64,000 nt of DNA from an uncultured Fluviicola sp. (GTDB taxonomy: Bacteria > Bacteroidota > Bacteroidia > Flavobacteriales_D > Crocinitomicaceae), in NCBI GenBank assembly GCA_965650365.1, contig CBFGOJ010000016.1:12710-76709 (forward strand). Reading direction: 5' to 3'. Shown here one piece after another: positions 8,501 to 12,405 of this stretch; the stretch's first letter is position 1, and the number at the start of each line of letters is the position of its first letter. A model generated the notes under the pieces. It had not been told where the DNA came from. It ran no database searches and saw only the letters and a list, made by a program, of their open reading frames with translations. The position numbers were made by a program, and so were the translations under genes.

Positions 8501-9756
8501 TTACTGGAGAAATATTTTTCTTTGACGGAATAGTTTCTTCCGTTTGCCTTCGACCATTCGATTGCTTCCTGCTCATTTACGAACGCTTTGGCATCCAAAC
8601 CGGTTTCATCATTTTGAACCACAAAACGACGTACGTAGAAAGGAGATCCATCCTGGTACTGATCCTGACTTGCCAACTTGGAATTCCAGTGGTTTCCGTT
8701 TAGAATTGGCCATGATCCATATTGCTCACGTTTCAGGTAAGCGTGAAGTGTAACCAGGTTTTCAGGGTCATTTTCATCCAAAGGCGTGTTTGCATTGGAA
8801 CGAATGACGATAACGGCAAATGAACCATAACCGATTAAAAGGAAAGCTAAACTCCACAAAGCAGTATTTAAGATCGGTTTTGCCTTCTTCTTCGCGTATC
8901 TGAATGCCCACATGAACAATCCGATCAATAAAAGGAAGAAGAAAATGGTTCCCGAAAAGAATGGCAAACCGAAAGAATTTACAAAAGCAACCTCGAAAGA
9001 AGAAGCAACTGCAACGGATCCCGGGATGATTCCTTCCTGAACGAAAGCAAGAACGACTACCGAAATCAAACCTGTCAGGATAATTCCTTTAAAGGTGGTT
9101 TTTTCCCAAAGGTTAAAGTACATCACGAAAGCAATTGCCGGAACGGCAAGTAGACCCAATAAATGGACTCCGATCGCCAAACCGAACATGAACCAGATCA
9201 GGATCATCCAACGCATCGGAGATCTTCCGTCTTTAATTTCACCGTGTTTGATACCAATCATTTCAGCATCCCATTTCAGGATCATCCAGAAAATGGCAGC
9301 AGTGAAAAGAGATGACATCGCATAAACCTCCCCTTCAACAGCAGAGAACCAGAATGAATCAGAGAATGTGTAAGCTAATGCACCAACAACTCCCGCACCA
9401 ATTGTAGCGATCTGATCACCTCGTGACCAATCTCTGTCTTTGCGCTGCATGATCTTTTTACCAAACATGGTAATAGACCAATACATGAATAAAATAGTAA
9501 ATGAACTGGATAAAGCTGAAAGACGGTTGATCCAAACGGCTACCATTTCCGGCTCCGCGAAGAATGAGAATAAACGTCCTAAGACCATGAACAAGGGTGC
9601 GCCCGGAGGGTGACCAACTTCTAATTTATTTGCTGCAGTAATATATTCCCCGCAATCCCATAGTGAAACAGTGTCTTCAAGGGTAAGGAAATAAACAATC
9701 GTTGCGATTAAAAAAACAAACCAGCCTGTTAGGTTATTCAGTTTATTGTAATTCAT
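5593..9756 (-). CDS. DUF2723 multi-pass membrane protein (GT-C fold, TMEM260-like glycosyltransferase)
   Basis: SLWDCGEYI...GHPPGAP, WFSAVEGEVYA, PRERDYAY and GDNDTFPLWY motifs, with many TM helices. Confidence 0.88.
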   Translation of the reverse strand: MNYNKLNNLTGWFVFLIATIVYFLTLEDTVSLWDCGEYITAANKLEVGHPPGAPLFMVLGRLFSFFAEPEMVAVWINRLSALSSSFTILFMYWSITMFGKKIMQRKDRDWSRGDQIATIGAGVVGALAYTFSDSFWFSAVEGEVYAMSSLFTAAIFWMILKWDAEMIGIKHGEIKDGRSPMRWMILIWFMFGLAIGVHLLGLLAVPAIAFVMYFNLWEKTTFKGIILTGLISVVVLAFVQEGIIPGSVAVASSFEVAFVNSFGLPFFSGTIFFFLLLIGLFMWAFRYAKKKAKPILNTALWSLAFLLIGYGSFAVIVIRSNANTPLDENDPENLVTLHAYLKREQYGSWPILNGNHWNSKLASQDQYQDGSPFYVRRFVVQNDETGLDAKAFVNEQEAIEWSKANGRNYSVKEKYFSSNESVRIGSKQVYEPSQTTFLPRMYYTSNNPNDPKIVAYKNWSGYDATDATESDEIGTDGLRLPRFGENMEYMFSYQMNWMYWRYFMWNFSGRQNDFQGHGDQMRGNWISGFSVIDDARLGNQEHAPYYTLENPAHNNFWMLPLVLGVIGIIFHFYRAPKDAFIVFLTFIFTGFAIVIYLNQKPYEPRERDYAYAASFYAFAFWIGLSVLALYDAYKNFTKEDWGKIMIGFGSLSGLILIFAAAGGFFIFGAWLIIALIALALLGIAFGLRKVLPNNAMAASIFTILLLFVPYIMGEQGWDDHDRSNKSSAHDLAYNYLKSCAKNGIIFSVGDNDTFPLWYLQEVEGVSTDVRVCNTSLFDTDWYTNQMKMKMYDSEPLPITFREDQILQWAGGTDQAFFMSSSQMLAQGIDRETLEKLFRMKLKYSPREFKQAFGNFKNTASSVLSTVKAKDVSFDPRINEIRQIFNNASADSADFALLENMDNGIREIFDGYSNGILEADVKGLETLQQIATSWEDGWSFLPLKDVITFMQDDKNMIKYGTASLRVIPSTGFILPVNKKNALASGIISKEEVANCEDEIRFRFNSNSVQAITKSDIMILDMLAHNDWKRPMYFTSPGNTEVSTAMYQSGHLRTNGMAWEITPILAQGKTPINEKLMYKHIMETYHFGKMNDPDVLTDYYARRQTVQFRTMFAQLAEHYVLEAEQMEMSKEQYGPMLKNLRASGQARVADSLENTFKGSMGLTVQQLRKKAAQVIHKSLEVMPANIVLDYGEKPSSAGPIKDANGLDYQQYQDGVLQDYVGLLYRAGDKAGAEKLGAEVARQLESILGYFKNSPANFAASNESDYIAAVINYATIHKFAGDPRIAGENGALVNRTTKGLSELYNVDLKRIYSELEQISLANGESPTSGNIAASKSRLQGTMNAIDFTFELTGTQVPMAPQPAPTGMPSDAILPETLPKGAESDSEPIVG

Positions 9757-9921
9757 GATTTACTTTGAAAGTTTGACTCGCGAAGTTATAAATATATTGC
9801 GACGATTCCTCATAGAAACGGTGAAAATTGCTAAATGAATGAAATTCAATCATTTTTAACTTTTTTGCCCGAAAAAACGAACTTTTTTTAAAAGATCCCT
9901 TGGAGAAAAAGAATTTAGTAT

Positions 9922-9929
9922 TAACTTTG
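9922..9929 (+). promoter_or_regulatory. Bacteroidota -7 promoter box for tRNA-Gln
   Basis: TAACTTTG (TAnnTTTG) 10 nt before the tRNA. Confidence 0.75.
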
Positions 9930-9939
9930 CCCTCGCAAT

Positions 9940-10012
9940 TGGCCCATGGTGTAACTGGCAACACGTCGGTTTTTGGTACCGAAGAGTCTAGGTTCGAGCC
10001 CTAGTGGGCCAA
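9940..10012 (+). tRNA. tRNA-Gln: tRNA-Gln (anticodon TTG)
   Basis: Acceptor TGGCCCA/TGGGCCA, anticodon arm TCGGT-TTTTGGT-ACCGA, T-loop GGTTCGAGCC. Confidence 0.97.
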
Positions 10013-10025
10013 CAATGAAAGGGAG

Positions 10026-10058
10026 AAAAAAGGAGTTTAGAAATAAGCTCCTTTTTTT
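10026..10058 (+). terminator. Intrinsic terminator after tRNA-Gln
   Basis: AAAAAAGGAGTTT...AAGCTCCTTTTTTT hairpin with T-run. Confidence 0.75.
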
Positions 10059-10324
10059 GTGGGCATAAGTTTGGTGGTGGAAGTTGCGACAAATCGACAA
10101 ATCAAGTGGGGATTGAATTCATCATTCATCATTCATTGTTCTTTCATCTATTAACTATTCATGATTCGAAACAAGACCTATAACAATATGGGCATATCTT
10201 CCTTTAAAGAGTCGCAGGTGGAATTCAAATATCTTTTCCTTTTCTCCTCCTGTTTTCTCATTCTTTAACTTCTCCCAAACTCTTTTTCTCTTAACTTAGA
10301 AATTGTAACGCAAAAATGAGGGGT

Positions 10325-10453
10325 ATGAAAAAGCAGTTTTATCTTGCAAAAGAGCAGAAGTTTTGTCCGGCGTGTGGAACGCCATTACCAGAAGGACATG
10401 CACAATGTCCGAATCCAACTTGTCCGGCTAATCAGCCGCCGCCGGTTCATTAA
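10325..10453 (+). CDS. 42-aa zinc-ribbon small protein (not in ORF track)
   Basis: MKKQFYLAKEQKFCPACGTPLPEGHAQCPNPTCPANQPPPVH*. CxxC-x10-CxxxxC pattern, followed by a terminator. Confidence 0.7.
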   Translation: MKKQFYLAKEQKFCPACGTPLPEGHAQCPNPTCPANQPPPVH

Positions 10454-10478
10454 TCGGTCAGGTTTCCAACAAAATATG

Positions 10479-10509
10479 AAGCTTTCCGCTGTGGTGGAAA
10501 GCTTTTTTT
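10479..10509 (+). terminator. Intrinsic terminator after the zinc-ribbon ORF
   Basis: AAGCTTTCC-GCTGTGGT-GGAAAGCTT followed by a T-run. Confidence 0.75.
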
Positions 10510-10515
10510 CATTCT

Positions 10516-10575
10516 TCGAAGCTCGAAGAGCGAAGGAGAATTTATTCCTTCGAAGCTCGAAGTGCGTGGAAGGAT
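10516..10575 (+). repeat. 34-bp tandem repeat array A (about 1.8 units)
   Basis: TCGAAGCTCGAAGAGCGAAGGAGAATTTATTCCT plus a degenerate partial copy. Confidence 0.85.
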
Positions 10576-10706
10576 TCTTTTTATAAAGAATGTGAAAATC
10601 CGGATTTTAAAATTCCTTAACTTTTTCCGATTTCTTTTCTTGCTATTTTAGAATCAACAGAAAAGGCACAACGAATCAGAAGTCAATTCTGATCTCTCTA
10701 TATACT

Positions 10707-10740
10707 AAGCTTCATCGTCAATTCGGTGAAGCTTTTTTTT
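10707..10740 (+). terminator. Second terminator-like hairpin
   Basis: AAGCTTCATCG-TCAATT-CGGTGAAGCTT followed by a T-run. Confidence 0.65.
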
Positions 10741-10746
10741 TATTCT

Positions 10747-10841
10747 TCGAAGCTCGAAGAGCGAAGGAGAATTTATTCCGTCGAAGCTCGAAGAGCGAAG
10801 GAGAATTTATTCCGTCGAAGTTCGAAGAGCGACGAAAGAAT
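10747..10841 (+). repeat. 34-bp tandem repeat array B (about 2.8 units)
   Basis: Two identical units TCGAAGCTCGAAGAGCGAAGGAGAATTTATTCCG (10747-10780, 10781-10814) and a degenerate third. Confidence 0.9.
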
Positions 10842-10842
10842 C

Positions 10843-12405
10843 TCACTCCTTCACAAAATTCTGGATTCGTTTCATGTTCTCGGATTCATACAAAAACCAG
10901 TAAACACCTTTTTCGAGAGCAGAAAGATCTAACGTCAGGACTTCGTTGATGTCATTGAACTCTTTCAGCTTTGCCCCGCGTGAATCAAAGATTTGAAGTT
11001 TGTAGGGCTTGTTTTCAGGAAGCTGCACCTGGATCGTTCCGCTTGTTGGATTTGGAGCAAGCTTCAGACCTGAGTCCGGATAAGGGATTACCGGCGGTTC
11101 AATATAAGTGTAAACCGTGATTTTATCCGTTCCGGAATCTGCGCCGCCATTGTTACAGAGGTAAATCTTCTTTCCATCGGGAGAAACGGCTACATCACGG
11201 AGACGACCGTTTAACTGCTGATCCTCGCCAAAGAACCGTTTGGGATTTTCACTGCCTGAACTTTCTATTGTTCCCTGTGTATTTAACTTCACCTGGTACA
11301 GTTCCATGCGGGTATTATCTCCTTTTTTCAAGGTTACGAGCAGAATACTGTTCGTCCACTGCGGAATAGAATTGCTTTTGTAGTAAATTCCATCAGACGG
11401 AGCAACGGTGCACCAGGAAGTTCCATTATTGGAAGAAGGGAGCGGCTCGGCACAGAAAGAATAAATGGGTTCTATTAAATGATCGTTCGCGATTTGAGGA
11501 TGCGGCAGGTAATTATTCACATAAGCAGCTTCTCCCGGAAAATTATTGTCAGAATGATAGCCGCGCACATCCTTCCAGCCGTAGTTCATTCCTTTTTCCA
11601 GGATATTGATCTCGTCGTCAGTACGGTCTCCGTGTTCCAGGTCGTAAAGAATGTCGAGGTTTGAGTTATAAGCTAATCCTTGCGGATTGCGGTGTCCGCG
11701 GGTGTAAAAGGAATTTCCCGGAATCGGGTTATCTGCCGGGATACTTCCGTCCATATGGTAACGATGGATCTTTCCATTATCAGCAGCCGGGTCCTGGGCA
11801 AAATTATTCGGGTTATCCGATTGCGGATTGTAGCATTGCGGACTATTTGTTTCTGAAGCACCGTGATCACCGATTGATACAAAAAGATAAGGGATGTTAT
11901 TTCGCTTAACGGCCAGTAATCTTCCGCCCAGGTGATCGTACCCGGTTGATATTCCGCTTACAATATCCTGCGATGCAACTACCTGTTGTGTATTCAGATT
12001 CCATTCCAATCTTCTGATTTTGAATTTGGTTGCCGGACTTCCGGAAGTGCCTGAATTATAAGCATACATGAAATAAATAAAAGAAGAACCCGGAGTATTA
12101 AAATCAGGGTGTAATGCCAGGCCTAAGGTTCCGGCACCAATTCCAAGGTTCGGACAAAGCACGGAGGTTTCCAACGGACTTCCGCCGAAATAATCGTTTG
12201 CTGTATAAACGATGGTTTTGGCCCCTGTTTCCGGGTTGATTCTGGAAACTCTTCCATTGCTTTCTGTGACCCAAAGCATGGAGTCTGGTCCGTAAAAGAG
12301 TTCCCAGGGAGTTGAAACAGTCGTTGGAAGTTCGGAACGTACAAATGTTTGAGTATTTCCGGAAATGGAATGGAGCAGGATAAGGAGGAAGAGGAAATTC
12401 TTCAT
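10843..12405 (-). CDS. PQQ-dependent sugar dehydrogenase (GSDH family) with T9SS type A C-terminal domain
   Basis: PWEL, HLGGRL, GHRNPQGL, EHG..DDEIN and GRLRDVAVSPDG motifs. C-terminal LAPNPTSG...LDLSALEKGVY. Confidence 0.88.
   Translation of the reverse strand: MKNFLFLLILLHSISGNTQTFVRSELPTTVSTPWELFYGPDSMLWVTESNGRVSRINPETGAKTIVYTANDYFGGSPLETSVLCPNLGIGAGTLGLALHPDFNTPGSSFIYFMYAYNSGTSGSPATKFKIRRLEWNLNTQQVVASQDIVSGISTGYDHLGGRLLAVKRNNIPYLFVSIGDHGASETNSPQCYNPQSDNPNNFAQDPAADNGKIHRYHMDGSIPADNPIPGNSFYTRGHRNPQGLAYNSNLDILYDLEHGDRTDDEINILEKGMNYGWKDVRGYHSDNNFPGEAAYVNNYLPHPQIANDHLIEPIYSFCAEPLPSSNNGTSWCTVAPSDGIYYKSNSIPQWTNSILLVTLKKGDNTRMELYQVKLNTQGTIESSGSENPKRFFGEDQQLNGRLRDVAVSPDGKKIYLCNNGGADSGTDKITVYTYIEPPVIPYPDSGLKLAPNPTSGTIQVQLPENKPYKLQIFDSRGAKLKEFNDINEVLTLDLSALEKGVYWFLYESENMKRIQNFVKE

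Follow-up and report, generated by a model that had tools for sequence, protein, structure and literature searches.

The locus and its transcription signals

Within the window (the whole stretch of 64,000 nt that was analysed), a short open reading frame with transcription signals of its own lies between a tRNA-Gln gene and a family of local repeats, and is followed by a candidate sRNA unit. On the upstream side, the tRNA gene is accompanied by a TMEM260-like glycosyltransferase gene on the minus strand; downstream, a convergent GSDH-family gene encodes a product with a T9SS sorting tail. The features of the locus, in window positions, are the following.

9940–10013: tRNA-Gln
10265–10269, plus strand: TTAAC box, upstream part of the promoter-like region, 22 nt ahead of the −7-like element
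10292–10299, plus strand: −7-like element TAACTTAG, which agrees with the Bacteroidota consensus TAnnTTTG at 5 of 6 positions
10325–10453, plus strand: predicted CDS of a 42-aa Cys4 zinc-ribbon protein, stop included, from the ORF and 15 orthologues
10478–10510, plus strand: predicted intrinsic terminator of the zinc-ribbon gene, with a 12-bp stem (10478–10505), a 4-nt loop and a T-run
10617–10743, plus strand: candidate sRNA unit, separate from the protein gene, from promoter architecture, conserved core and terminator
10617–10621 and 10644–10651, plus strand: TTAAC and TATTTTAG, promoter-like elements of the sRNA unit

The ORF list of the window gives the frame as 10316–10453 on the plus strand, with two in-frame ATGs at 10316 and 10325 and a stop codon at 10451–10453. 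The ATG at 10325 is present in every orthologue, whereas close relatives have ACG or TCG in place of the one at 10316; a start at 10325 gives a product of 42 aa, and the 45-aa form that would start at the upstream ATG was discarded for want of a conserved start. An opposite-strand ORF of 40 aa (10296–10418) was likewise dropped, as stops occur in the reverse frames of most orthologues. The 42-aa peptide has the pattern CxxC-x10-CxxxxC, in which the first knuckle is CPACG (Cys14/Cys17) and the second CPNPTC (Cys28/Cys33), and ends in a Pro-rich tail with a PPP run two codons ahead of the stop. A preliminary description of this DNA had proposed a 42-aa four-cysteine zinc ribbon with a Pro-rich tail, lying between tRNA-Gln and repeats and followed by a strong terminator about 25 nt past the ORF. 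The length agrees with the orthologue-conserved ATG at 10325, the cysteine pattern and tail are read in the frame itself, the 12-bp stem and T-run are found 24 nt after the stop, and the tRNA and the repeats (from 10503) flank the gene as described.

The −7 promoter consensus of the Bacteroidota is TAnnTTTG. Each of the 15 orthologues has a TAnnTT(A/G) element 28–35 nt ahead of its ATG, and the TTAAC box recurs at the same spacing, exactly 22 nt further up, at 10 of the 15 orthologous loci. The region from −66 to −1 is 62–77 % identical to the window, compared with a background of about 57 % further upstream. Elsewhere in the genome the TAnnTTTG consensus is visible at other promoters, among the matches to a loose regular expression. 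This loose pattern is not enriched genome-wide (21 matches vs 9–33 in scrambled controls), and the two promoter-like sites at the locus are set apart only by a stricter PWM. With the PWM, the TTAAC/T-tract/TAnnTTAG architecture is found at two sites only in the whole genome, ahead of the zinc-ribbon gene (score 37.3) and of the sRNA candidate (31.8), the next-best score being 21.7. A third TTAAC-N22-TAACTTAGAA site was seen outside the window, at about 9670 of contig C1 of genome G000 and about 35 nt ahead of an ATG; it has no T-tract and a PWM score below 18.

A hairpin with a T-run follows the stop by 28–95 nt in 13 of the 15 orthologues, with stem sequences that differ between them; the predicted terminator is conserved as a structure and not as a sequence. 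Judged by these signals, the gene is monocistronic and forms an independent transcription unit, with promoter-like elements and a predicted terminator of its own.

Flanks of about 1.5 kb around the 15 orthologous loci contain the GSDH-family gene, the TMEM260-like gene, tRNA-Gln, and membrane or uncharacterised ORFs. The GSDH-family gene, syntenic at 11 of the 15 loci, is the only conserved neighbour. The upstream side is variable, with tRNA-Gln in this position at six loci. No maturase, transporter, integrase or evident partner gene is located beside the zinc-ribbon gene in the window, and no conserved partner gene was found around the 15 loci.

The candidate sRNA is about 85 nt long (about 10655–10743), with a predicted terminator at 10707–10734. 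It is 86–89 % conserved in 7 of the 36 genus genomes, the 7 closest, and in each of them it separates the zinc-ribbon gene from the convergent GSDH-family gene. An invariant core with a 7-bp hairpin is apparent, as is one compensatory pair in the terminator stem. In a permissive Rfam scan of 9700–10900 the tRNA was the sole hit, and neither the sRNA candidate nor the stretch around the ORF matched a family. The promoter regions of the gene (10259–10303) and of the sRNA unit (10611–10655) have three blocks in common, namely the TTAAC box, the T-tract and TAnnTTAG, and this common architecture points to co-regulation or to local duplication. The stem of the sRNA terminator (AAGCTTCA..TGAAGC) resembles the terminator found directly 3′ of the zinc-ribbon gene in more distant orthologues (loci L008, L030 and L007). 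This resemblance hints that, in the seven-species subclade, a local duplication or insertion may have placed the sRNA unit ahead of the ancestral terminator of the ORF.

The local repeat family starts at 10503, at the T-run of the zinc-ribbon terminator. A repeat unit of 34 nt is present behind both terminators, at 10513–10576 and 10744–10841. Genome-wide, three copies occur at five or fewer mismatches, all of them at the locus in the window, and the unit is absent from the orthologous loci read in other species. Judged by these copies, the 34 nt repeat is a species-specific local duplication and not a dispersed REP-like family.

Orthologues, coding selection and distribution

A search of the proteins of relatives, together with a profile search over all 36 species genomes of the genus, recovered a single-copy, full-length, stop-free orthologue in 15 species genomes of Fluviicola. 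An NCBI record of 42 aa, 83 % identical, is annotated as ‘MULTISPECIES: hypothetical protein [Fluviicola]’. Sixteen alignment columns are invariant in the 15 orthologues, including the four cysteines, CPNP and CPxN, and both the CPNPxCPxN block and the reading frame are kept in every one of them. C14, C17, C28 and C33 are also invariant in eight distant homologues. Conservation extends over the whole peptide, N-terminus included, and the CDS is 71–90 % identical to that of the window, compared with the background of about 57 % for the DNA 70–260 nt upstream.

The frame is under purifying selection. Variable sites number 23, 16 and 35 at the first, second and third codon positions, respectively, and stops are present in the other five frames in most orthologues. 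Median pairwise dN/dS is 0.106 at a dS of about 1.1. In seven disjoint nearest pairs, 91 synonymous differences were counted vs 34 nonsynonymous ones (pN/pS 0.10, Fisher p 6e-42).

The gene is confined to part of the genus, with its carriers among the near relatives. All 15 carriers encode a LigA at least 84 % identical to that of the window, and genomes at 83 % or below are never carriers. At least three genus genomes with a LigA 89–92 % identical do not have the gene at the orthologous site; in these three close non-carriers, other genes adjoin the orthologous GSDH-family gene. Some lineages have thus either lost the gene or never fixed it, and its absence from three similarly close genomes marks it as dispensable. 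Searches of 265 genomes from 28 further genera of the family and, with a broader profile, of 385 genomes from 100 further genera of the order did not recover it. In the species genomes covered, the zinc-ribbon gene is lineage-restricted, to part of one genus, Fluviicola.

Beyond these genomes, 1.8 billion representatives were searched exhaustively with a profile; only two near-relative clusters and about eight distant small proteins emerged. The latter are 36–66 aa in length and carry the signature CxxCG-x9-CxNPxCP. The distant homologues located on metagenomic contigs (profile E 3e-8 to 5e-4) are few and measure 36–72 aa. The subfamily with CxNPxC and CPxN..P amounts to about 16 clusters among 5.8 billion proteins. 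Used as tblastn queries against the 4.5-Mb genome, several of the distant homologues lead back to the ORF (E 3e-7 to 3e-5).

The surroundings of the distant homologues differ from one to the next, and no shared neighbours were found among them. A homologue of 72 aa (L035:3766-6474, on a contig of GCA_964568865.1) sits in an ICE-like context with a defence-type cassette, flanked on one side by a TraG/TrwB-like coupling protein and a 356-aa protein and on the other by a SLATT_4+SMODS pair. Another lies in a phage-like run of small genes ahead of a DNMK kinase, a further one is arranged divergently with a repressor-like HTH_3 gene, and the remaining contexts include small operons. A deeper synteny with GSDH, suggested by the distant homologue at locus L056, was rejected; the GSDH there is 27 % identical to that of the window and is a coincidence or a paralogue. 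A tblastn search of 50,697 phage records gave no match to the zinc-ribbon protein.

A very short reading frame predicted from sequence might be a chance intergenic ORF and no gene at all. A frame kept open in 15 orthologues at a pN/pS of 0.10, to which distant homologues return by tblastn within a whole genome, virtually excludes that reading at the level of sequence. The preliminary description had proposed a real small protein gene, had named dN/dS as a check and had taken a lack of homologues with the four cysteines and of a ribosome footprint as the outcome that would speak against it; the homologues retain all four, the dN/dS value amounts to strong coding selection, and the proposal is supported. 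Sequence could hardly argue more strongly for a gene of 42 codons, and it is virtually certain on these grounds that the zinc-ribbon ORF is a genuine, selectively maintained gene. We infer that it is translated in vivo.

Zinc-ribbon family and resemblance to known fingers

In its 42-aa form the peptide matches the Pfam model Zn_Ribbon_1 (PF13240) at 33.4 bits, above the gathering score of 25 (E 3.5e-8), and 17 of 18 family members match the model at E ≤ 0.1. The peptide had been called zinc_ribbon_2-like beforehand, a name from earlier Pfam releases that we take to denote the same family, and the assignment holds. Four ligand cysteines in two knuckles are kept across the homologues. As in other Zn_Ribbon_1 proteins, a short single domain carries two Cys knuckles, the first of them of the CPxCG type. 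Unlike in those proteins, the second knuckle is CxNPxC (CxxxxC) and not CxxC, and an invariant CPxN..P tail past the second knuckle marks a narrow subfamily. PF13240 as a whole is a family to which no function is assigned. No family in PHROGs or NCBIfam was above threshold for the 42-aa protein. It is quite likely that the peptide binds one Zn2+.

An AF2 model built from the 15-sequence alignment has only moderate confidence (mean pLDDT 71.9, with 76–83 for residues 11–40) and places a short beta-hairpin between the knuckles. Foldseek against the PDB gave no match at E ≤ 0.001 for this model. With VIA-align over 48,161 chains the best match was eL40 (Z 2.2, rmsd 2.5 Å over 36 residues). Kinship with eL40 was rejected, the Z of 2.2 being far under any meaningful level and the sequence identity 14–22 %; this small Cys4 zinc ribbon of the ribosome has only the generic ribbon shape in common with the peptide model and occurs in eukaryotes and archaea, unlike the bacterial host of the peptide. 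A feature-based search of the ESM Atlas returned just generic small zinc-ribbon clusters, at scores of 0.88 or less.

The closest resemblance at the level of the motif is to the Cys4 finger of NAD-dependent DNA ligase (LigA). In a profile search of the PDB the best matches were the ligase fingers 1v9p (E 0.0027) and 1dgs (E 0.003), and a third, 8ak4 (E 0.043), is also among the five best; the ribbon of NUDT12 was matched as well. The order CPxCG .. L .. EG .. CPNPxCPA is collinear with LigA subdomain 3a of Thermus filiformis (1DGS/1V9P), although the inter-knuckle loop of the peptide is four residues shorter. The Pfam model DNA_ligase_ZBD (PF03119) is matched collinearly and over its full length (profile 2–27 of 27), at 16.5 bits vs a gathering score of 25.8 (E 0.0076); 8 of 18 family members match it, all of them sub-threshold (best E 0.0031). 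The LigA finger is a structural one-Zn2+ knuckle that bridges two domains (PMC10504179). The ORF, by comparison, encodes a stand-alone 42 aa without the OB and HhH domains of a ligase on either side, and the LigA of the same genome is encoded elsewhere with its finger intact. LigA fingers of relatives provide the lowest E value (0.035) among the non-orthologous genome matches and another at 0.33. A six-frame search of the genome itself with the family profile found no paralogue and left the resident LigA finger outside the top 40 matches; an origin by duplication of that finger is therefore not supported, and was dropped. The sequence likeness to LigA is taken as one of motif and not of membership.

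A second comparison is with the one-domain C(P)XCG zinc-finger micro-proteins of haloarchaea, which are regulators or stress, biofilm or swarming factors; examples are Brz of Halobacterium salinarum and HVO_0758 and HVO_2753 of Haloferax volcanii (PMC2253796, PMC6562870, PMC10716476). Like these, the peptide is shorter than 70 aa, has a single predicted Zn finger with a CPxCG knuckle, and is encoded by an autonomous gene; the known roles of the haloarchaeal proteins are regulatory or adaptive, not enzymatic. It differs in its Bacteroidota host and in having just one of two knuckles of the CPxCG type, and the likeness is one of size and motif. By the published definition of the class (PMC11241148, PMC10716476) the peptide falls within the size range but outside the class itself, its second knuckle being CPNPTC. 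Some haloarchaeal C(P)XCG proteins reportedly do not bind zinc (PMC11241148).

Proposed role and alternative readings

Taken as a whole, the locus is best read as a monocistronic gene whose product, a zinc-finger micro-protein of one domain, would serve as a binding module, a reading to which we assign a probability of roughly 0.6. The lack of a conserved neighbour that could hint at a partner, the dispensability of the gene, the moderate confidence of the model and the haloarchaeal proteins that bind no zinc weigh against it. In the proposed mechanism, Cys14/Cys17 of CPxCG and Cys28/Cys33 of CPNPxC would bind one Zn2+ and so shape the central part of the peptide as a ribbon with two knuckles. 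A chain of 42 aa leaves no room for catalysis, and the peptide would therefore work stoichiometrically as a binding module without catalytic residues. To a larger partner, either a protein that handles nucleic acids or a nucleic acid itself, it would offer its conserved hairpin loop (GTP-L/I-P-E/D-G) and its CPxN..P tail, both rigid and invariant in the case of the tail, and it would thereby modulate that partner. For the binding-module role taken separately, the odds are about even. Nucleic acids or nucleic-acid enzymes would be the more likely class of partner, given the LigA finger, the NUDT12 ribbon, the haloarchaeal micro-proteins and the MGE- or phage-like contexts of distant homologues.

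Two alternatives concern the ancestry of the gene, and they refine the binding-module reading and do not contradict it. The gene could be a domesticated remnant of a mobile genetic element (MGE) or phage, from a family of MGE-borne early or regulatory proteins (in a Cro-, excisionase- or anti-defence-like position), captured near tRNA-Gln. The distant homologues on metagenomic contigs speak for this, one between a coupling protein and SLATT_4+SMODS, one within phage-like small genes and one divergent from a repressor-like gene, as do the tRNA-Gln upstream at 6 of the 15 loci and a patchy distribution that skips the 100 other genera of the order. In Fluviicola, by contrast, the gene is single-copy, is syntenic with GSDH at 11 of the 15 loci and is flanked neither by an integrase nor by other MGE genes; the distant homologues have no neighbour in common, and neither PHROGs nor the phage records gave a match. 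Such an origin is thus unlikely, if still worth keeping in view. Somewhat more doubtful is a free-standing derivative of the LigA Cys4 finger, acting on DNA or on LigA-related repair or replication complexes. The collinear PDB matches including CPNPxCPA, the full-length DNA_ligase_ZBD alignment in 8 of 18 members, the LigA fingers among the non-orthologous genome matches and a rank of 2 for DNLJ in Foldseek, though not significant, would fit it. Every one of the scores is nevertheless below the curated cutoff, the generic Zn_Ribbon_1 model scores much higher, and the shorter knuckle spacing is compounded by the three gaps needed to align the peptide with the genome's own LigA, a finger that does not reach the top 40 of the six-frame matches. 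Cys-rich knuckles, moreover, readily converge. An equally doubtful extension would join the gene and the sRNA in a lineage-specific two-unit regulatory module under one dedicated factor, which would act through the promoter architecture peculiar to these two sites, with the protein belonging to an undescribed, rare, MGE-associated family of free-standing LigA-finger-like binders of DNA or protein.

Two further readings would change the nature of the product altogether, and both are highly improbable. A Cys-rich RiPP precursor would likewise be small and monocistronic, with four cysteines and a Pro-rich C-terminus. Yet no radical-SAM enzyme, cyclodehydratase, lanthipeptide synthetase, peptidase or exporter occurs within about 1.5 kb at the 15 loci or among the annotated genes of the window, the peptide has no split into leader and core, and it matches a zinc-ribbon model above threshold. 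The preliminary description had already held a peptide precursor to be less likely, and the survey of maturase-like and transporter genes in these flanks and in the window agrees. The PPP run two codons before the stop, with a terminator 24 nt past it, could also mark a cis-acting leader ORF, in which EF-P-dependent stalling of ribosomes at PPP controls termination at the downstream hairpin. Here the difficulty is that, behind the terminator, nothing is co-oriented but a unit with its own promoter, and that a ribosome stalled at PPP would stop short of the stem at 10478. Selection, furthermore, keeps the whole peptide sequence and the Cys ligands above all, none of which a stalling leader needs.

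Zinc-ribbon micro-proteins of uncharacterised function are common. The 42-aa protein is of this ordinary kind of small protein, and nothing suggests an unusual mechanism. The case matters in three ways. An ORF under the usual length cut-off has been validated by sequence alone, through orthologues, codon-level selection and conserved transcription signals. With it, the one-domain zinc-finger micro-proteins, until now investigated chiefly in haloarchaea, gain a Bacteroidota case. Lastly, the narrow and rare CxxCG-x9-CxNPxCP signature makes the protein a possible tractable model of what a polyproline-tailed, minimal Zn knuckle binds.
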